Positions 1,456 to 17,245 of a stretch of 57,088 bases of DNA are shown piece by piece (the first letter of the stretch is position 1; each line of letters opens with the position of its first letter). The translations under genes were made by a program, and so were the position numbers. The notes below the pieces were generated by a model, which saw only the letters and a program-made list of their open reading frames with translations, was not told the origin of the DNA and made no database searches. This stretch comes from a virus (taxonomy: Duplodnaviria > Caudoviricetes), in the IMG/VR virus record IMGVR_UViG_3300044619_000511, positions 1 to 57,088 of that record; one strand, given 5' to 3'.

Positions 1456-1473
1456 ACATTAGGGTTTGGTTAG

Positions 1474-1519
1474 GAACTGGCATCCGTATCGATCGGATTA
1501 CGATTCTCTCTGCCAGTTC
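1474..1519 (-). ncRNA. tRNA-like minihelix element, copy 1
   Basis: GAACUGGC-[AGAGAGAAUCGUA]-AUCCG AUCGAUA CGGAU-GCCAGUUC: 8-bp closing stem plus 5-bp stem/7-nt loop. Confidence 0.8.
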
Positions 1520-1524
1520 GGGAG

Positions 1525-1752
1525 CTATTGAATAATCTTTAGTACTCGATGACCATAAAATGCATAGCCCTCAAATTCAATAAAATTACTAACTGGATCG
1601 GAACAAGAGGTTACCTTCAGCAACTGGCCCCTCTTAGGCCCATTCTCTAAATCTTCAACATCAATTGCTACAACTAAATCGCCTTCAAATAATTGTGTTC
1701 CGTCAATGTCATTGCAGTATTGGTTAACTGGAGTTTCTGATAGATTAGACAT
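1525..1752 (-). CDS. hypothetical protein
   Basis: 75 aa, bracketed by elements 1 and 2. Confidence 0.8.
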   Translation of the reverse strand: MSNLSETPVNQYCNDIDGTQLFEGDLVVAIDVEDLENGPKRGQLLKVTSCSDPVSNFIEFEGYAFYGHRVLKIIQ

Positions 1753-1771
1753 AGTATTTGGGTTTGGTTAG

Positions 1772-1812
1772 GAACTGGTTGCCATCGAAGGCCACGGCAT
1801 ATCCGCCAGTTC
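1772..1812 (-). ncRNA. tRNA-like element, copy 2 (degenerate)
   Basis: GAACUGG-CGGAUAUGCCG-UG-GCC UUCGAU GGC-AA-CCAGUUC. Confidence 0.65.
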
Positions 1813-1822
1813 GGGGGTGTTC

Positions 1823-2053
1823 TTAGAATGCGAGGCGCTTTAACTCATTGAGCATTGATTCTCCGCCATCGAATACTCCGTTGTAGGTTATCCAATATTG
1901 GAGTAATTCAAAGTCACTATACTGATCAAGAAGGTCGTAGCTTTCCTTATAGGTCTGATGTAGTTGCGCCGAGTCTATCTCGGCCATGTAATCCAACAAA
2001 TATTTTCTAAAGTCTTGGCACTTTTGGTTTGGTGGGGCGATGCATTTAAACAT
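1823..2053 (-). CDS. hypothetical protein (start MFKCIAPP)
   Basis: Start moved to ATG 2053, downstream of element 3. Confidence 0.75.
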   Translation of the reverse strand: MFKCIAPPNQKCQDFRKYLLDYMAEIDSAQLHQTYKESYDLLDQYSDFELLQYWITYNGVFDGGESMLNELKRLAF

Positions 2054-2072
2054 AAAATAGGGTTTTGATGAG

Positions 2073-2115
2073 GAACTGGGAGCGGAGTCGAACCGCTCTG
2101 ATACCATGCCAGTTC
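2073..2115 (-). ncRNA. tRNA-like element, copy 3
   Basis: GAACUGG-CAUGGUAUCA-GAGCGG UUCGACU CCGCUC-CCAGUUC; canonical T-loop GUUCGACUC. Confidence 0.85.
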
Positions 2116-2122
2116 GGGGGGA

Positions 2123-2218
2123 TTATAATGCCCGATTAGAGGGTAAAATAACGTATCCGTTTTTGATAGAAAAGAACTCACGGATTGAATTGCGGAAGGA
2201 CTTGATTGCTTTTGACAT
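2123..2218 (-). CDS. 31-aa peptide MSKAIKSFRNSIREFFSIKNGYVILPSNRAL
   Basis: Exactly fills the space between elements 4 and 3; CAAAACCCC start motif. Confidence 0.65.
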   Translation of the reverse strand: MSKAIKSFRNSIREFFSIKNGYVILPSNRAL

Positions 2219-2237
2219 TGTTAGGGGTTTTGATGAG

Positions 2238-2283
2238 GAACTGCGGTCGGTTTCGCTCCGACTTCGGTCTTACCTCGCAGTTC
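2238..2283 (-). ncRNA. tRNA-like element, copy 4
   Basis: GAACUGCG-[AGGUAAGACCGAA]-GUCGG AGCGAAA CCGAC-CGCAGUUC; compensatory change in closing stem. Confidence 0.85.
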
Positions 2284-2290
2284 GGGGGGG

Positions 2291-2782
2291 TTAAAATTCC
2301 CAGTCATAATGATACTCTGCTTGTCCAAAGAGAATGTTTACCTTAGGATACCTCCTTTTAGCCTTAGTGAATCCCTTGACCAGTTTAAGGTCGTTGTTAT
2401 CATCGTAGAGGCCTATTTCACTGCAGCGAATCCATAGGTCAACACTATTTTTAAACTGCTCATAGAACGATTCCTCAAAAACGATATTCTCAATCACCTC
2501 TCTCCATGCGCCATTGCGATAGATGAGAGTGCGTTTGTATCCATTGGGATTAGGAGTCAGTTCCCAATCTTGGTGTCCCATACCTTCCGAATTGGGCTTA
2601 GCCGTGTGATTCATTTCGCGGATGACACACTGCTTACCATCAGCGGATACCTCCAGTACTTCAGCGGGATGGCGGTCTGAATAGGAGAGGAGAGTAGCAC
2701 CTTTGCCTACCTCGGGGGTAGTCGAATTGTTGCCCATAAGGTAGTTGGTGAAGCTACCTTCGAGTCTTCTAGTTTGTCTCAT
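2291..2782 (-). CDS. hypothetical phage protein (start MRQTRRLEG)
   Basis: 163 aa; start set downstream of element 5. Confidence 0.8.
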   Translation of the reverse strand: MRQTRRLEGSFTNYLMGNNSTTPEVGKGATLLSYSDRHPAEVLEVSADGKQCVIREMNHTAKPNSEGMGHQDWELTPNPNGYKRTLIYRNGAWREVIENIVFEESFYEQFKNSVDLWIRCSEIGLYDDNNDLKLVKGFTKAKRRYPKVNILFGQAEYHYDWEF

Positions 2783-2801
2783 TGTAAGGGGTTTGATTCG
2801 T

Positions 2802-2845
2802 AACTGGGGGTGGTATCGCTCCACCTTCGCACATTGCTCCCAGTT
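2802..2845 (-). ncRNA. tRNA-like element, copy 5
   Basis: AACUGGG-[AGCAAUGUGCGAA]-GGUGG AGCGAUA CCACC-CCCAGUU: 7+5 bp, tRNA acceptor/T-arm geometry. Confidence 0.85.
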
Positions 2846-3264: not shown

Positions 3265-3307
3265 TAACTGGGAGGGGAGTCGAACCCCTCCTAAGACCAT
3301 CCAGTTA
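3265..3307 (-). ncRNA. tRNA-like element, copy 6
   Basis: UAACUGG-AUGGUCUUAG-GAGGGG UUCGACU CCCCUC-CCAGUUA; begins in the UAA stop of the PAPS-reductase-like gene. Confidence 0.85.
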
Positions 3308-4066
3308 TCCGCAGACGAACTCTGCGACCTTGAACTGCGCATCACCCTCAACGATATCCTTCAGCCAGTTTTTCTCCTTCCCACTCATAAGAAGGGTAAA
3401 GCCCAGTCTCTCCTCAGTTTCAACGTATCGCTTGTATAACTGGGGGTTATGCTTCGCGGCTACCTTGATATCGCTCTTGTTACTCATAATGCAAAACACA
3501 CAAGATAGACGGCTCATGCCGAGGTCATAGGCGTAGTGTCTCTTCTGACCTACGGACTCAATTTCCGCCCATACTTCCTTCACGCTCCAGTCAAAGATGG
3601 GTAGCCAGTCATACCACTCACGACCTGCTTTGCTATTGCGCTCATTGAGACGGAATGGGATTTGCTTTGCTCGTGCGGATGATTCTTCTGCACGAATCCC
3701 CATACAATTCACAATGAGAGTTTTACCTCGCTCCTTGCACCAGTTACGGATAAATTTCTCGATTGGCTGACGCTTGAGGTCGCTTGTACACTGGCGATAA
3801 CTGGGGGATGGGAACATCCCACGATGCTCAACCATCTCAAAGAAGGTTTTACCGGCACGAACTAAATGCGCCTCTATGCCCAATGAATTCTCTTGTACGT
3901 GACTCCAACACCCCTCCCAGTCAACTTCGGGAAGGTCTGCGTGAACGATTACCAATTGGTCGTGAGGAACTACCTTGCTAAGAAATATCTTCATCGCTTG
4001 GCTATCCTTTCCTCCGGAATCATTGATAAAAAAGATTGCACCTTTGTCGATTAATTCTTGAATCAT
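3305..4066 (-). CDS. PAPS reductase family (PP-loop) protein
   Basis: SGGKDS PP-loop, CTSDLK, GIRAEESxxR, RLSCVFC; start MIQELIDK at 4066. Confidence 0.9.
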   Translation of the reverse strand: MIQELIDKGAIFFINDSGGKDSQAMKIFLSKVVPHDQLVIVHADLPEVDWEGCWSHVQENSLGIEAHLVRAGKTFFEMVEHRGMFPSPSYRQCTSDLKRQPIEKFIRNWCKERGKTLIVNCMGIRAEESSARAKQIPFRLNERNSKAGREWYDWLPIFDWSVKEVWAEIESVGQKRHYAYDLGMSRLSCVFCIMSNKSDIKVAAKHNPQLYKRYVETEERLGFTLLMSGKEKNWLKDIVEGDAQFKVAEFVCG

Positions 4067-4079
4067 AACTGGGGTTTTG

Positions 4080-4128
4080 GGTTTCGGCCTGCTTGGCCTC
4101 ATCAGTACGGATAGCGTATCCGTAGACC
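4080..4128 (-). ncRNA. type III hammerhead ribozyme
   Basis: GGUC|UACGGAUA CGC UAUCCGUA CUGAUGA GGCC AAGCA GGCC GAAA CC: full catalytic core, stem I 8 bp, stem II 4 bp, stem III 3 bp; predicted cut between 4125 and 4124. Confidence 0.85.
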
Positions 4129-4129
4129 T

Positions 4130-4490
4130 TGTCATTTCGGGGGTAGTCAATGGCGATAAATCGGCCAACAACATCTGCCCCAGTAGGTGAGTCCTTTCGG
4201 TTCTCTCACCCCAACACCCTAACTACAACTTGTGTAGGTTTGGCGCGACCTTGTGTGAACACTGGGAGTCGGTTCGTTACCGCCAGTGTGCCTGTGTTTA
4301 TGTGCCGAGGAAGGCATCCTCGAGTCTCTCTCGCTCAACACGATTTTATCGAGACCATCGCTTTGCATTTATCGTGGTTTGGTGTCCGTCCGTCCATCGT
4401 ACTCACCTAGTCTGGTGGATGGGTGGGGGTGCATTGCCCTAACACGTTGTAGCGAACATTTGAAAGAACTGCGGACTCATTGTCGAATCC
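4130..4490 (-). ncRNA. putative large structured leader/ncRNA
   Basis: No credible ORF; many hairpins and long-range complementary segments between promoter and hammerhead. Confidence 0.55.
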
Positions 4491-4491
4491 G
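4459..4491 (-). promoter_or_regulatory. boxB-like hairpin followed by boxA-like AGTTCTTTCAAA
   Basis: CGGATTC GACAAT GAGTCCG then GTTCTTTCAA just after the predicted start site; resembles rrn-type boxA. Confidence 0.5.
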
Positions 4492-4494
4492 ATG

Positions 4495-4527
4495 CAAACA
4501 TAGGGTGGCAGGGTAACTACTTCCAAA
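4495..4527 (-). promoter_or_regulatory. Bacteroidota sigma70-type promoter of early operon
   Basis: TTTG (-33), 21-nt spacer, TATGTTTG (-7, TAnnTTTG); A/T-rich upstream tract. Confidence 0.8.
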
Positions 4528-4651
4528 TTTTTTTACAACTTTTTTTAAAAATACGTATTCTTACTTAGAATTTGGATTGAGAATCAAGCAATTAAGCAAA
4601 AAAATAATTTAGGGGTAAGTAAGGTCGGGAGGGTAAAATGGGGGTATCGGC

Positions 4652-4727
4652 TACTAAAAGCATTAGTAATCAATACTAAAGAAATTAGCTGGTTGTCAAT
4701 GAAAGCAAATTGCTAAAGAGATTAGCA
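4652..4727. promoter_or_regulatory. three operator-like palindromes TRCTAA-N5-TTAGYW
   Basis: 4652-4668, 4674-4690, 4711-4727. Confidence 0.6.
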
Positions 4728-4750
4728 AAGGCGGGGGGTTCGGGGGAATA

Positions 4751-5083
4751 CTAGAGCCGTTTATTAAGTAGATAGCTCCGTATATAGGATAAGTACTCTC
4801 TCCCTAGAGGAGTAATAGAATACCGCTTGTGTGTCTCCCTAATAGCAAGGCCAAGAAGACAAAGAGAATTCAAGTAGTTCCAAGAGGAACGATTGTCTGC
4901 CCGCTTAACATGGGGGCGATGCAAAAAAACAAAATCAGCTAAGGCCGTTTGACTGGTAGTGCCTAGCCTACGAAGGCCGTATAAAAATCGTAACTGGGTA
5001 TAGTTTAACTCAGCAATTCCAGTACGCTGAGATGCACGATAAATGGCAGTATCTACACACAAAAAGAATTTCTCAATCTTCAC
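4751..5083 (-). CDS. winged-helix (MarR-like) DNA-binding protein
   Basis: LNYTQLRFL...SQTALA...YSITPLGREYL wHTH pattern. Confidence 0.7.
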   Translation of the reverse strand: MKIEKFFLCVDTAIYRASQRTGIAELNYTQLRFLYGLRRLGTTSQTALADFVFLHRPHVKRADNRSSWNYLNSLCLLGLAIRETHKRYSITPLGREYLSYIRSYLLNKRL

Positions 5084-5518
5084 GGATGAAAGGTTTTTTG
5101 TAAAGGGAGGAGGGGGGCTATTGTATCTTTAAACACACACGCATAATCGCCACATTCCCAATATGTTGCAAGGTTTTTATCCAGTTCCGTTTCCCTCTTC
5201 ATTCCCTCCCCATTGATTACCCCACTACCTCCTTCACAACCTAACGCAATATGTGTCAGCCAGTTAGGTATTATATGGGGGTTATATGGTATTACCCGTT
5301 CAGCCCTAAAATCGTTTTTGGAACTGCCAAAAATACCCCCACCCAGTTTGCGTTTTGCGATTCGCAAAATTATCAAAAGCCACTTAAAATAATGTATTAC
5401 CCCCACTCTTTTCCCACACACATCTGATCTATAAACCCTTGGCATAAACTCTCGATTTTTTGTAGTCCAAATTTAGGCTTTATTTGTTGGTTATAGACGG
5501 GTGTGAAAAACTTGTATC

Positions 5519-5549
5519 TTGGCGGTTCGGGGTTCTCTTTGTATGTTTG
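5519..5549 (+). promoter_or_regulatory. putative rightward promoter
   Basis: TTG, 20-nt spacer, TATGTTTG (5542-5549). Confidence 0.5.
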
Positions 5550-5803
5550 TCTGGCTACGTTATCCGGGTGCATGGAGATAACATCAAGGGGGCCCCGTAG
5601 CTGTGCGAAGATTGAAACTTCGGCGACGATTTAATAGGACAGGTCAACACGCGTAAACCGGCGGAAGATCCTCCAGCAGGCGATGCCACCAAATAGGATG
5701 GACGGCCTTAAACAACCCTAAGGGGGGAAAGGGGGGTGTGCTCAGAATTTTCTTGGCTCAGATTTAATGCTTTATTATCTCTCGTTTAATTAATTTGCAC
5801 TGT

Positions 5804-5965
5804 ATGGAAATGATGCTTCGTAAGGATGGTTCTTACTCTCGTCGTGGACTCTGGGATAATATCAGGGCCAAGGCTGGTAGTGGTAAGAAGCCAACCAAAG
5901 AAATGTTAGAGCAAGAACGTAAAATAAAAAAAGATGCCTCTAAAAAAAGCAAAAAGAAAAAGTGA
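5804..5965 (+). CDS. small Lys-rich protein (53 aa)
   Basis: Hand-translated MEMMLRKDGSYSRRGLWDNIRAK... Confidence 0.7.
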   Translation: MEMMLRKDGSYSRRGLWDNIRAKAGSGKKPTKEMLEQERKIKKDASKKSKKKK

Positions 5966-6107
5966 GCTCCAGTCAGCCATCTCGGCTAACATCCGTGAGC
6001 TTATGGCGGATAACAAGAAGAAGGGGAAGGAGAAGGGAGCTGGTGGTAAAGCCAGATCCAAGAAGCAGATCCTTGCAATTGCTATATCAGCCGCTAAAGG
6101 TAAATGA
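5934..6107 (+). CDS. small basic phage protein (57 aa, MPLKKA...QILAIAISAAKGK)
   Basis: Hand-translated; ATGA-coupled to HNH gene. Confidence 0.75.
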   Translation: MPLKKAKRKSELQSAISANIRELMADNKKKGKEKGAGGKARSKKQILAIAISAAKGK

Positions 6108-6373
6108 GGAAGCACACTAAGGTATACTTAGACTTCTTTGGTTATGGGATGGATAGCTGGATGCCCTGTGAGGTATGCGGATCTACTGCTGTGGATGTGC
6201 ACCATATCGAGGCTCGGGGTATGGGTGGCTCTAAGACAAAGGATGAGATCGACAACCTAATGGGTCTTTGTCGGTCATGCCATATTGAGTATGGCGATAA
6301 AAGAAAGTACATGGATATGCTTCGTGAGGCGCACATGCGTTTCATGGATAAGTATAGTAATTCACATTTGTAG
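6104..6373 (+). CDS. HNH endonuclease
   Basis: CEVC...DVHH...NLMGLCRSCH. Confidence 0.9.
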   Translation: MRKHTKVYLDFFGYGMDSWMPCEVCGSTAVDVHHIEARGMGGSKTKDEIDNLMGLCRSCHIEYGDKRKYMDMLREAHMRFMDKYSNSHL

Positions 6374-6420
6374 ATAAGTAATATGATTAAGATATCCACA
6401 TCTTATAGTAATTTAGTCAT

Positions 6421-6990
6421 ATGCAGCCGATCTACAAGATATTCGTTAAGATTGATAAGCGGTTCCAAGACGAGATAGAGACCGAGTCTGGTCTAAAGTT
6501 ATACAAGGACACTTCATTTAAACAAGAGGAGAACTCAACAATTGTTGGGCATGTGGTTGCTGTACCGGATAAGTATGACCACTCTATGGGGTCTGAGGAT
6601 TTTAAGGCTAACGTCAAGGCTGGAGATAAATTATATTTTCATTTCTTGGTAGCCATGGATGAGGAGAATAGAATAGAGGTAGATGGGGAGGAGTACTGGA
6701 TGGTAGATTATTTTAACGCGATCGCGCTGGTGCGCGATGGTAAGATCATACCTGTCGGTGACTATATCTTACTAGATCCAATCAAAGAAAAGGTTGATAC
6801 CAGCCTTATCGTCCCAGACACGGTGGATAAGGAGGGTACCCGCGGATTGGTGGTAGCCAGTAACGATCCATCTATACCTGAAGGGTCTACTGTTGAATAT
6901 GAGGAGGTTGGTAAGTTTTGGAATATCATTGAGGGGCGTAGACTGTACTGCATGTTCAACCAAAACATTTTATTTATACACAATGACTAA
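6421..6990 (+). CDS. GroES-like co-chaperonin with two tandem domains
   Basis: TESGL...GHVVAV...VKAGD and PVGDYILL...LIVP...GLVVA GroES-like motifs. Confidence 0.7.
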   Translation: MQPIYKIFVKIDKRFQDEIETESGLKLYKDTSFKQEENSTIVGHVVAVPDKYDHSMGSEDFKANVKAGDKLYFHFLVAMDEENRIEVDGEEYWMVDYFNAIALVRDGKIIPVGDYILLDPIKEKVDTSLIVPDTVDKEGTRGLVVASNDPSIPEGSTVEYEEVGKFWNIIEGRRLYCMFNQNILFIHND

Positions 6991-11684: not shown

Positions 11685-13668
11685 TGGTTCTAAAGAAAAT
11701 ATACAGGGGTTGTTATGTTATACACCCCCACCCGGTTTTGTATTCAATATACTAAACGGGGAGATAGAGGAGCGATCTGTATACGCTAGGTCCCCAAAGA
11801 AGTCTGAACAGTATTTTGACTATACTCCTCTGCCAAAGGATTATGCAAAGATTAGGGCTAAGGAGCAGCAAAGGCAGAACGAGGACCCTGAGTATTTCGA
11901 TCCTAAGCTGGAACAATTTCGTCAACAGGAGTGGGACCGTAGGCTTAATGGTTACTGGTTTTACAATAATGGCGTTCCAACCTACATTACAGGTCTGCAC
12001 TACTTCTATTTAAATTACTGGAATCTAGATACCGGTCTACCAAAGTATAGGGACACTGACAGGAAGTATTTCTATTTTATGCAGTACTGCATTGAGGACC
12101 CAGAGTGTATGGGAATGGTAGAGATTACTAAGCGTAGACAGGGTAAGACATTCCGTGGTGGTGTGTTCTTATATGAATACCCGTCTAGAACTAATAATGC
12201 TAAGTCTGGTATCCAATCCAAGACTGGTGCAGATGCTAAGGAGGTATTCCGTAAGGCTGTGATCCAGCCGTTCAAGAAGCTACCTGATTTTTTTGTACCC
12301 ATCTTTGATGCGTCTAAAGGTTTAACTCCAACCTCTGAACTTCGTTTCTATCAAACTACTGTTAAGGGTAGGAAGGCTAATATGATTAAGGATGAGCATG
12401 AATTGGAATCAGCTATAGACTGGAAGACTTCAGAGGCTATATCTTACGACGGACAGAAGTTGCACAGGTATCTAGGAGATGAGGTTGGTAAGACGATGGA
12501 GGTGGATGTCTGGAACAGATGGCTGGTTACAAAGTACTGTCATCTAGATGATGAGGGTAGGATTATTGGTAAGGCTTTATTAACCACTACAGTTGAGGAT
12601 ATGGAGCAGGGTGGTGCTTCTTTTAAGAAGATATGGGAGAACTCTGATCAGAATAATAAAAAGGGTAAGAGAACTGCCTCTGGTCTTTACCGTTACTTCT
12701 GTAGTGCTGCAGAGACTAGATACTATAATGATTATGGTATAGCGGATCGTGCTAAGGCTGAACAGGAGATAAGGGATGAGAGAAAGCTATTAGCTCACGA
12801 CCCCCGAGCTCTCAGTTCTGTAATTAGAAAGGAGCCTATTGAGTGGGAGGAAGCGTTTAGGATCGATGGTAGCAAGTGCTTGTATAACCCTGAGTTTCTG
12901 AACGAAAGAATGGATAGGCTAAGTTGGAAGGATAATTTGACAACAAGAGGTAACTTTGTGTGGCTTAATGGCGACCGAGACACTAGGGTTGTTTTTGAAC
13001 CATCAAAGACTGGCCGGTGGGAGGTTGCAAAGCTATTTGAAAAAGAAGAGGATAGTAACAATGTTAAAAAAACAGGTGGTCTATTCCACCCGGCTAACGG
13101 CTTAAACTTTGTGATAGGTGTGGACCCAGTGGACCACAACGTAACAGAGGATGGCAGAAGGTCAAACGGTGCAGGGATGGTACTTCAGAAGTACAGCGCC
13201 GCTCGGGAGAATGATATCTATAACTACGCATTCGTTGCTAAGTACGCATACCGTCCTGAATCAGTCCAAATATTCTATGAGGATATGATTAAGATGGCAG
13301 TATACTATGGTGCCCCAGTATTGTTTGAGAACCAGAAGATTGGTCTTATGCACTACTTCGATGATCGGGGGTATGCTCCATTCCTTACATGGCTACCTGA
13401 AAGGAACCAGCCGGGTATTGCAGCCAGTGCTAAAACGCACCAGCAAATAGCTGAGCTGACTGAGGACTATATCAATAAGATGCACGATCGGGTTTATTTT
13501 AAGGATCTGATCCAAGACTGGCTAGAGTTTGATATATCCAAAACAACCAAGTTTGACTTGGCTATGGCAGCTGGGTACGCCCTGATCGCCGACCAAGTTA
13601 AAGTAAACGTGAAAGGAACTGGTCAGATACGAGACGTGTCTGATTATTTTAGGAAGAATAAAATATAA
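11665..13668 (+). CDS. terL: terminase large subunit
   Basis: Walker A KRRQGKT, Walker B LGDEVGK, nuclease GVDP...ENQK...D. Confidence 0.92.
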   Translation: MFSPINNGSKENIQGLLCYTPPPGFVFNILNGEIEERSVYARSPKKSEQYFDYTPLPKDYAKIRAKEQQRQNEDPEYFDPKLEQFRQQEWDRRLNGYWFYNNGVPTYITGLHYFYLNYWNLDTGLPKYRDTDRKYFYFMQYCIEDPECMGMVEITKRRQGKTFRGGVFLYEYPSRTNNAKSGIQSKTGADAKEVFRKAVIQPFKKLPDFFVPIFDASKGLTPTSELRFYQTTVKGRKANMIKDEHELESAIDWKTSEAISYDGQKLHRYLGDEVGKTMEVDVWNRWLVTKYCHLDDEGRIIGKALLTTTVEDMEQGGASFKKIWENSDQNNKKGKRTASGLYRYFCSAAETRYYNDYGIADRAKAEQEIRDERKLLAHDPRALSSVIRKEPIEWEEAFRIDGSKCLYNPEFLNERMDRLSWKDNLTTRGNFVWLNGDRDTRVVFEPSKTGRWEVAKLFEKEEDSNNVKKTGGLFHPANGLNFVIGVDPVDHNVTEDGRRSNGAGMVLQKYSAARENDIYNYAFVAKYAYRPESVQIFYEDMIKMAVYYGAPVLFENQKIGLMHYFDDRGYAPFLTWLPERNQPGIAASAKTHQQIAELTEDYINKMHDRVYFKDLIQDWLEFDISKTTKFDLAMAAGYALIADQVKVNVKGTGQIRDVSDYFRKNKI

Positions 13669-16240: not shown

Positions 16241-17245
16241 ATGAGTGATGAACTGAATTTCAACGAGTTGTCATTAAATGATATTACCGTTGGAGGAAAA
16301 CCTATAGTAGAAGCTGCGCCAGAACAAGCGCCAGTAGAAACTAAAACAGAACCTGCTACAGAAGAACAGACTCCAGTAGAGGCTGCTCCTGAAGAAAAAG
16401 CAGAAGCCCCTGTCGATGAAGAGGTGATCGGCAAGGCAAGACAAGTGGCTCCCAAGTATGAATTCAAAGATGATTTCATTAAGGGCGCCGTTGAATATTA
16501 TGAGAAGACAGGTGATTTGACACCATATCTTCAAGCGAAAACTGTAGATTTTTCTACTATGGATGATGCGGCGGTTATGAGACGTAATCTCCGCGAACAG
16601 TATCCAGATGTTTCTGAAAAGGCGTTTGATCGTCTTTTCCAGCAGCAGGTAGTTGATAAGTTTAAGCTTGACCCAGAGCAGTGGGGAGAAGATGACGTAG
16701 AGCTTGGGAAAGAACTCCTAAGATCTGAAGCTCAGAAACTCCGCACACAGTACATGGACTGGCAGAAAAAATTTGTGGCTCCGGAACCACAAGCTGATCC
16801 AGAAGCTGAAGCTCAAGAGACTGCAATGCAGGAAGCGCTAGCTCAATTTGAGAAAGCGGTATCCGAGAACTCTCTGACTAGATCTATCTTAGAGGCTAAG
16901 AGACTTAGCATTAAGACGGGCGATGATGAGTTCAATTATGAGTTGCAGAATCCTCAAGATATGGTTGAGATGACGCTGGATAACAACAAGTTCTTTCAGC
17001 AGTTCGCGTCTGGCGAAAATCAATTAGACTATAGTAAATGGTATAAGACCGTTGCCTACAGTCAGAATCCTGAGCAATTTGAACGTGCTCTGATTAACTT
17101 TGGTAAGACGCTTGGACGTTCCGAAGTGACGAAAGAAATTAAGAACCCATCTACTGCTCCTGTAGGTGATGTTCCAACAGAAAGTTCGGGGGACTTTACT
17201 TCAGGTCTTCTCCAAGCTTTCGCAAGTAGGGGCATTTCAAAATAA
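16241..17245 (+). CDS. capsid scaffolding protein
   Basis: Acidic, E/P/A-rich N-terminus, between portal and capsid. Confidence 0.65.
   Translation: MSDELNFNELSLNDITVGGKPIVEAAPEQAPVETKTEPATEEQTPVEAAPEEKAEAPVDEEVIGKARQVAPKYEFKDDFIKGAVEYYEKTGDLTPYLQAKTVDFSTMDDAAVMRRNLREQYPDVSEKAFDRLFQQQVVDKFKLDPEQWGEDDVELGKELLRSEAQKLRTQYMDWQKKFVAPEPQADPEAEAQETAMQEALAQFEKAVSENSLTRSILEAKRLSIKTGDDEFNYELQNPQDMVEMTLDNNKFFQQFASGENQLDYSKWYKTVAYSQNPEQFERALINFGKTLGRSEVTKEIKNPSTAPVGDVPTESSGDFTSGLLQAFASRGISK

Follow-up and report, generated by a model that had tools for sequence, protein, structure and literature searches.

Type III hammerhead ribozymes are known from bacteria, prophages and phage metagenomes, and as described in Perreault 2011 (PMC3088659; Rfam family RF00008, clan CL00010) they have the same core, GUC cleavage site and open stem III as the element that we describe here. 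Phage hammerheads flanking genes were proposed in that paper to cut long phage transcripts into operon-length or gene-length mRNAs, a role that is unproven. The same function that we propose below, the division of a long phage transcript into defined pieces, has been put forward for clustered prophage ribozymes, and both that paper and a 2019 review (Weinberg, Weinberg and Hammann, PMC6765202) treat it as suggested and unproven. The review describes the function of bacterial and phage hammerheads and twisters as largely elusive, and reports that the two classes share genomic neighbourhoods in bacteria. Perreault 2011 (PMC3088659) also reports pseudoknots in ∼40% of hammerheads, tied in type III to a stem I that is two pairs longer than stem II, and a lower activity in one ribozyme when its stem I was lengthened by two pairs.

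Hammerheads beside phage genes, the pseudoknots in them and the transcript-processing idea are thus already known (PMC3088659), and the hammerhead described here is in itself ordinary for a phage. The newer part is its setting, in which a ∼400-nt RNA appears to head an early operon and to have its 3′ end made by a hammerhead or by a twister, depending on the lineage. We found no description of such an RNA, or of hammerhead/twister replacement at one phage junction, in the main texts of the open-access literature; the supplements of Perreault 2011 may list the hammerhead family to which this copy belongs.

The DNA analysed, referred to as the window, is the whole of a 57,088-base virus record with 41% G+C and an estimated completeness of 86%. 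It encodes a P22-like portal, an SU10-type capsid protein, a primase-helicase and a YqaJ recombinase. No close relative was found among cultured phages: a blastn search with 3300–5300 matched only 76 bases, in one Stenotrophomonas phage, and a tblastn search with the capsid protein gave one match of 30%, in a Vibrio phage. Related loci from other contigs are designated by L numbers below.

Sequence and conservation of the hammerhead

The minus strand from 4128 to 4080 reads GGUC|UACGGAUA-CGC-UAUCCGUA-CUGAUGA-GGCC-AAGCA-GGCC-GAAA-CC, exactly as it was transcribed in the initial annotation, which had called it a type III hammerhead with a full core, a GUC triplet and a stem III of 3 bp; all of these are present. 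Stem III consists of GGU (4128–4126) on the 5′ side and of CC (4081–4080) with A4082 on the 3′ side, and C17 follows at 4125. Stem I pairs 4124–4117 with 4113–4106 and is closed by the loop CGC (4116–4114), the core CUGAUGA occupies 4105–4099, stem II pairs 4098–4095 with 4089–4086 around the loop AAGCA (4094–4090), and GAAA lies at 4085–4082. From the sequence and its alignment to the RF00008 consensus, the conserved core is complete, with C3–A9 (CUGAUGA), G12–A14 (GAA) and C17, and the core pairs A15.1–U16.1 and G10.1–C11.1 are in place. The cleavage triplet G4127 U4126 C4125 conforms to N-U-H, with U4126 paired to A4082. Loops close stems I and II, stem III is open, and the three stems have 8, 4 and 3 bp, which is the topology of type III. 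Stem III has only three pairs before an A/C mismatch interrupts it, its length in relatives being three to five pairs.

Self-cleavage is predicted between C4125 and U4124 (4124–4125, minus strand), the position that follows GUC in the hammerhead consensus. The cut had earlier been placed after C4125, with a leader of 58 nt left on the mRNA, and the coordinates bear this out (4124–4067). The products would be an upstream RNA ending in C4125 with a 2′,3′-cyclic phosphate and a downstream RNA beginning at U4124 with a 5′-OH, whose leader would carry the hairpins of stems I and II, followed by CAAAACCCCAGUU and the ATG. On the minus strand CAAAACCCCAGUU spans 4079–4067, directly 5′ of the ATG at 4066, and in L148, L231 and L252 the orthologous hammerhead is followed by a comparable context, (A)AAACCCC(C)AGUU-AUG.

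We compared the element with published and purpose-built models. RF00008 matches it over the full model (1–54) with 31.4 bits, at an E-value of 5.7e-5 in a 401-base search, of 1.9e-6 in a single-family genome search, and of 0.0081 when the whole window was searched against the full set of 4227 families, a search in which no other match falls below E = 1. The cmsearch check that the initial annotation had called for therefore yields a full-length hammerhead match, albeit one whose 31.4 bits fall short of the gathering score of 48.5, which is the reason that a default Rfam scan of the window comes back empty. Alignment to the window shows that the RF00008 score depends on a longer stem III and on other loops. 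Our own descriptor scan finds one motif in the window; after dinucleotide shuffling a loose version of the motif appears in 1 of 300 sequences and a strict one, as good as the real motif, in 0 of 300. The folding energy of the 66-nt stretch by itself is ordinary (z −1.5), and the minimum free energy (MFE) fold pairs the GUC elsewhere, as expected, since thermodynamic folding does not capture the ribozyme core.

A pattern made of the core and stem II matches 92 stretches in viral contigs, and one made of the cleavage site and stem I matches 23; among the viral loci fetched there are 34 distinct type III hammerheads that are complete, and in many of them stem II and loop II are nearly the same. 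Covariance model R1 was trained on 23 type III hammerheads that come from other viral contigs, all outside the lineage of the window. It scores the window copy at 52 bits (E 9.6e-13, filters off), a score inflated by the way in which the training loci were gathered, with a pattern copied from the core and stem II of the window. The next best match has only 10 bits, and the window therefore contains exactly one such hammerhead.

The first open reading frame (ORF) after the hammerhead is a gene of the PAPS-reductase family (PF01507; 3305–4066, minus strand; Pfam 8.7e-13). A search with its protein returned 39 related loci, of which L002 and L003 (97% identity) and L004 (92%) are closest. In these three a tRNA-like element rather than a hammerhead precedes the PAPS-reductase gene, and the hammerhead lies further upstream, directly after a homologue of window positions 4530–4140 detected by blastn. 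No hammerhead was found near 35 more distant PAPS-reductase loci (L006–L040) searched with R1 at E≤1 in a 3 kb flank each. Eight distinct hammerheads occupy the orthologous junction, those of the window, L148, L155, L185, L231, L252, L135 and L003, with identical copies merged (L142 with L148; L136 with L155; L196 with L252; L002, L157, L177 and L247 with L003).

All eight are recovered by R1, at 35–56 bits. RF00008 gives 39.4 bits for L155 and misses L003 at E≤1; the latter has the variant CUGACGA and one extra U after A9. Stem I occurs as UACGGA/UCCGUA, UACGGG/CCCGUA or UAGUGC/GCACUA, and stem II as GGCC/GGCC, GCCU/AGGC, GUCC/GGAC or GGGGG/CCUCC around a constant core. In an alignment of the eight that, like the larger one below, was fitted to the model, both sides have changed in at least one sequence at 7 of the 15 pairs, and 90.7% of cells pair, compared to 80.1% in shuffles and 20–42% when the partners are slid; none of 500 shuffles reaches the covariation score. 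For the wider phage family the corresponding figures are 95.6% paired against 64.2% (38 sequences), with double changes at 12 of 15 pairs. The intact core in all eight orthologues, combined with compensated stems, argues for purifying selection on the catalytic core.

The initial annotation also suggested a contact between GCU of loop I and AGC of loop II. This is possible, with 3 pairs in the window compared to 5 in L155, and weakly supported, in that 55 of 2000 permutations reach the mean loop I/loop II complementarity observed over 33 family members. Counted as 6 pairs, stem I is two pairs longer than stem II and fits the pseudoknot geometry given in PMC3088659. When zipped to 8 pairs with a 3-nt loop, however, stem I can compete with the proposed contact, for which only the three pairs of GCU/AGC are then left.

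The upstream RNA and its 3′ junction

Directly upstream of the hammerhead lies a conserved structured non-coding RNA of ∼400 nt (4126–4525, minus strand; the 5′ boundary is approximate), delimited by blastn, alignments and RNAalifold. In the RNAalifold consensus of three sequences, 17 of the 107 predicted pairs are compensatory. The RNA's 5′ end, UGGAAGUAGUUA (∼4525), is predicted to form pairs with its 3′ end, UGACUACCC (∼4150–4140), which lies a dozen bases before the hammerhead. The most conserved portion is a 3′ core composed of GCGCCAAACC, a hairpin, AGGGUGUUGG and a second hairpin; it is common to 13 distinct sequences of three clades, and 9 of its 18 predicted pairs are compensated. A pattern for this core matched 94 metagenome stretches, 15 of which also have a blastn match to the RNA of the window at E≤1e-4, and this search contributed further relatives to the comparison. 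Neither the default Rfam scan nor the whole-window search against all families matched the RNA to a family, and no conserved reading frame was found in it among the relatives. An antisense ORF on the plus strand (4150–4410, 86 aa) was considered and rejected; its frames switch between relatives and it has no Pfam match.

All eight hammerheads directly follow this RNA. The first ORF downstream varies, being the PAPS reductase here and one of at least four unrelated small ORFs elsewhere. With the upstream RNA constant and the downstream gene variable, the ribozyme belongs to the RNA and not to the PAPS-reductase gene.

The orthologous junction in L219 has a different device. There the homologous RNA, recognised by a blastn match of 79% over 150 nt and by its 5′ and 3′ ends, is followed by a closed motif rich in hairpins, a type-P1 twister that matches RF03160 over its full length with 55 bits (E 1.5e-11), under the gathering score of 67.2 bits. 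The twister has a fold unrelated to that of the hammerhead and is absent from the window. It is located at the same distance (∼83 nt) from the conserved RNA core, and an ATG follows ∼17 nt later. The hammerhead and the L219 twister are alike in that each is predicted to be cut at its own 5′ edge, which would leave the upstream RNA with only a few additional bases and the mRNA with the body of the ribozyme. The presence of two unrelated classes of self-cleaver at one junction argues that cleavage is the selected function, and transcript cutting at this junction is probably the job of the hammerhead.

A third clade (L251, L201, L165, L186, L166, L234, L202 and L176) keeps the 3′ domain of the RNA. 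No recognisable ribozyme was found at its junction with R1 at E≤0.1, or in L251 with Rfam at E≤5. A ribozyme is therefore common at this junction, and neither universal nor indispensable.

The RNA of this third clade ends in GUCUUAACC, which corresponds to the cleavage site and 3′ strand of the type I hammerheads that sit at later junctions of the same contigs. No matching hammerhead core was found for it.

The operon and its tRNA-like elements

Three minus-strand ORFs (5573–4751) lie upstream of the folded RNA. The PAPS-reductase gene had been described as the first early gene; it is the first one after the folded RNA, and these three ORFs precede the RNA. The ORF closest to the RNA is small and encodes a winged-helix protein with a weak likeness to MarR (4751–5083, minus strand; PF01047 E 0.0033, below the cut-off), and it has this place in relatives too, the end of a homologous ORF being seen in L135, L148 and L003. 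A regulatory spacer (4526–4750, minus strand), conserved in L003, L148 and L155, separates it from the RNA. The spacer contains three inverted repeats of the type GCTAA-N5/6-TTAGC (4726–4711, 4689–4674 and 4668–4652) and an A-rich promoter-like stretch that ends in AAAATTTGG; relatives have TAAATTTG, which may resemble a Bacteroidota-type promoter. The order of MarR-like ORF, inverted repeats, promoter-like stretch and RNA is kept in the relatives. A scan of 3900–6500 for sigma-70 promoters and terminators gave nothing above chance.

In organelles, tRNA-like structures within polycistronic RNAs mark the sites at which RNase P and RNase Z cut, an arrangement known as tRNA punctuation or as t-elements. 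The later junctions of the present operon likewise carry mimics of an acceptor stem and T-arm between stop and start codons. In their full form the tRNA-like elements have a 7-bp stem (AACUGGG/CCCAGUU), a small hairpin, and a 5-bp stem that is closed by a 7-nt loop and lies right next to the outer stem's 3′ strand; the loops are T-loop-like (UUCGACU, AGCGAUA and similar). The predicted MFE folds of six elements show all three parts in three cases, lack the small hairpin in one, and differ in the T-arm-like hairpin in the other two. As modelled, the elements mimic the acceptor stem and T-arm of a tRNA. In contrast to the tRNAs of tRNA punctuation they have no D or anticodon arms, and they escape tRNA detection: ARAGORN reports 0 tRNA or tmRNA genes in the window, and the Rfam tRNA model RF00005 does not match them at E≤5 or E≤10. 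By analogy, RNase P or RNase Z may cut them. They are also neighbours of the hammerhead, distinct from it.

Covariance model R2, built from six tRNA-like elements, detects five strong copies in the window; all are on the gene strand, and each separates the stop codon of one gene from the start codon that follows. Four were training sequences, at 2795–2851 (76.3 bits), 2232–2288 (76.1 bits), 2067–2120 (60.8 bits, with the canonical T-loop UUCGACU) and 1766–1817 (49.2 bits), and the fifth, at 1468–1524, was outside the training set (52.4 bits, E 1.7e-10). All five are on the minus strand. There is a weak copy directly after the stop codon of the PAPS-reductase gene, and R2 gives 56 matches in the loci of 20 relatives, among them the twister clade and the third clade. 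From the folds and from R2, the tRNA-like elements that the initial annotation had noticed between genes are real, at five gene junctions of the same operon.

The further suggestion that the hammerhead occupies the same slot as these elements holds in part. CCCCCGAA does precede the hammerhead (4143–4136), and CAAAACCCCAGUU and ATG do follow it, as had been noted. The window contains 13 copies of the octamer where 0.65 would be expected, and on the minus strand it leads into tRNA-like elements at 2851, 2288, 2120 and 1817. Before the hammerhead, however, CCCCCGAA is part of the 3′ strand of the closing stem of the RNA, and in the alignment the orthologues read CCCGAUAAG, CUCGGUAAG or CCCGGUAAG in its place; it is not kept, so there is no shared slot signal at the hammerhead position. 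In relatives the two elements have separate positions, the hammerhead following the folded RNA and the tRNA-like element preceding the PAPS reductase, which indicates two modules that are merely juxtaposed here.

Function of the junction

The window copy contains the motif, its conservation is compensated, and its linkage to the upstream RNA is fixed. We think it quite probable that this type III hammerhead is active, acts in cis and separates the folded RNA from the mRNA of the operon. The separation of an upstream non-coding RNA from the mRNA had been proposed in the initial annotation, and the core, the covariation, the linkage to the RNA and the L219 twister lend it support in silico. Leftward transcription would start near 4525 and yield first a compact folded RNA of ∼400 nt with paired ends, followed by the hammerhead and then by the mRNA for the PAPS reductase and the remainder of the operon. 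The hammerhead would fold during transcription and cut between C4125 and U4124, releasing the folded RNA with a short GGUC tail that bears the 2′,3′-cyclic phosphate; the mRNA would then begin with a 5′-OH and have both ribozyme hairpins within its 58-nt leader. In this way the fates of the two RNAs would be uncoupled and each would be given a defined end, and host tRNA-processing enzymes probably do a similar job at the tRNA-like elements downstream. Effects on RNA stability or translation could go in either direction, depending on whether the 5′-OH protects the mRNA or exposes it to the RNases of the host.

Like known phage hammerheads, the window copy is located between transcription units and directly before an ORF. 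It differs from known type III hammerheads in scoring under the gathering score, in the three pairs of its stem III, in being single rather than clustered, and in being tied to one conserved ∼400-nt RNA and not to a gene. In comparison with clustered prophage ribozymes, there is a ribozyme at the first junction only, and the later junctions are tRNA-like and would need host enzymes.

As judged from its sequence, the window copy has two weak points: its stem III has 3 pairs, and its stem I appears able to zip to 8 pairs. If the short stem III and over-long stem I abolished catalysis in this phage, the motif would be an inactive relic, or merely structural, its hairpins serving as a 5′ stabiliser or pause site. 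The three pairs of stem III, the 8-pair stem I with its triloop, the sub-threshold Rfam score and a loop–loop contact limited to 3 pairs, where L155 has 5, would all be in keeping with a loss of activity. We nonetheless regard this as improbable, given that all core nucleotides are intact in 8 of 8 orthologues whose stems vary by compensatory changes, and that L148 has a stem I identical to that of the window together with a different stem II. It is scarcely conceivable that the stretch is instead coding, as an N-terminal extension of the PAPS-reductase ORF that would run from ATG 4174 through the motif. The frame is indeed open from 4174 to 3305 (289 aa), but in all 39 related loci the alignment opens at residue 1 or 2 of the shorter form, whose ATG lies at 4066 and which we take as the start in preference to the in-frame ATG 4174; the open frame upstream of 4066 is taken up by the non-coding RNA and the hammerhead, the Pfam match begins only at residue 53 of the long form, and in relatives three small ORFs and a tRNA-like element separate the homologue of 4174–4067 from the PAPS reductase.

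A rather unlikely alternative, though one with more in its favour than these, accepts an active hammerhead and takes the 400 nt for a cis-acting leader (a sensor, an antitermination element or a decoy) that is cut off to license or time translation, in which case the biology would be regulation of the mRNA rather than the making of a free RNA. The RNA always comes first in the operon and immediately follows a repressor-like gene and repeats that resemble operators, and in the third clade its 3′ domain stands before the first ATG without a recognisable ribozyme, like a plain 5′ UTR. Against a leader, the predicted pairing of the 5′ and 3′ ends suggests a discrete closed molecule, and the hammerhead and twister cuts at the 5′ edge leave few extra bases on the RNA, although neither point is decisive. 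We tentatively entertain a more specific proposal, that the RNA at 4525–4126 represents a new class of phage non-coding RNA whose exact 3′ end is so important that lineages have recruited different ribozymes to make it. Stated in full, and just as tentatively, it would be the first product of the early operon, with its 3′ end made by the hammerhead here, by a type-P1 twister in L219 and by unrecognised means in the third lineage.

The locus offers a clean test case, with a single ribozyme at a fixed junction and a conserved structured RNA set against variable genes. A twister naturally takes the position of the hammerhead in a relative, and further along the operon the junctions carry tRNA-like elements. 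Should the hammerhead prove to cleave, its role could be read from the fate of two well-defined products, and if the RNA is indeed of a new class, the locus would allow a direct test of one purpose for small ribozymes of phages and bacteria, namely to set the end of a specific functional RNA.

The window stretch is found in many freshwater and lake-water metagenome runs and partly in two metatranscriptome runs of one study. The interval 4087–4255, which holds the cleavage site, is bridged by DNA contigs but by none of the metatranscriptome contigs, and assembled contigs cannot show ends or strand. The metatranscriptome contigs (depth 2–10, one study) are identical to 2569–2764, 3303–3553, 3778–4087 and 4255–4478, which shows that the sequences of both the folded RNA and the PAPS reductase are present in an RNA library.

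A conserved structured RNA heading the leftward operon

At its head, the leftward operon of the window carries a conserved, structured non-coding RNA of ∼400 nt (4126–4525, minus strand), which corresponds to no Rfam family and has homologues in the related loci L003, L155, L148, L135, L185, L231, L252, L219 and L251, among others. Pairing between its 5′ and 3′ ends is predicted, and a 3′ core consisting of GCGCCAAACC, a hairpin, AGGGUGUUGG and a further hairpin is common to three clades. The spacer between the MarR-like ORF and this RNA contains three inverted repeats of the GCTAA-N5/6-TTAGC type (4652–4726, minus strand), with counterparts in L155 (940–1010) and L148 (9610–9685); these repeats may act as operators or form hairpins. 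The L155 and L148 spacers additionally contain two TGTGGATAAC motifs, which presumably resemble DnaA boxes.

Ribozymes at the RNA and gene junctions

The junction occupied by the hammerhead in the window is occupied in L219, between the homologous RNA and the first ATG, by a type-P1 twister ribozyme (11936–11998, minus strand), which scores 55 bits with RF03160, short of that model's gathering score (67.2). Clade 3 relatives have repeated type I hammerheads at later gene junctions, in L251 (1402–1444 and 1637–1716), L165 (9201–9236, 9482–9524, 9732–9773 and 10067–10112), L176, L186, L166 and L234, with the layout GGUUAA-CUGAUGA-GCCG..CGGC-GAAAC-hairpin-GUC|UUAACC. In clade 3 the ∼400-nt RNA terminates in GUCUUAACC, and no matching hammerhead core was found in front of it; the site may be split, degenerate or cut in trans.

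A hammerhead core variant with CUGACGA, a single additional U separating A9 from stem II, and a five-pair stem II is shared by two unrelated contigs, L064 (10297–10353) and L003 (2473–2530), the latter copy being missed by the Rfam hammerhead model RF00008. L155 (1–415) and L004 (1–255) are two overlapping ends of one 60-kb relative contig, and the overlap, with a few differences and an indel of roughly 150 b, suggests that the genome is circularly permuted or terminally redundant and that its assembly drew on a mixed population. In the same phage, the overlap also puts the hammerhead about 0.6–0.8 kb upstream of the PAPS-reductase gene.

Possible strain variation at the tRNA-like elements

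In sequencing run X16, DNA contigs from a related strain (window 1456–2841) skip from 1456 to 2060, 1780 to 2060, 2080 to 2210, and 2244 to 2841, with end points in or beside the tRNA-like elements. Recombination at these elements may thus add and remove small gene cassettes, a tentative reading given the short sides (21–30 letters) of the joints. The window is enriched in CCCCCGAA, with 13 copies against 0.65 expected. Copies also lie outside the tRNA-like elements, at 17185, 33057, 54859, 56836 and 699–892, the last having three within 200 b, apparently in coding sequence.
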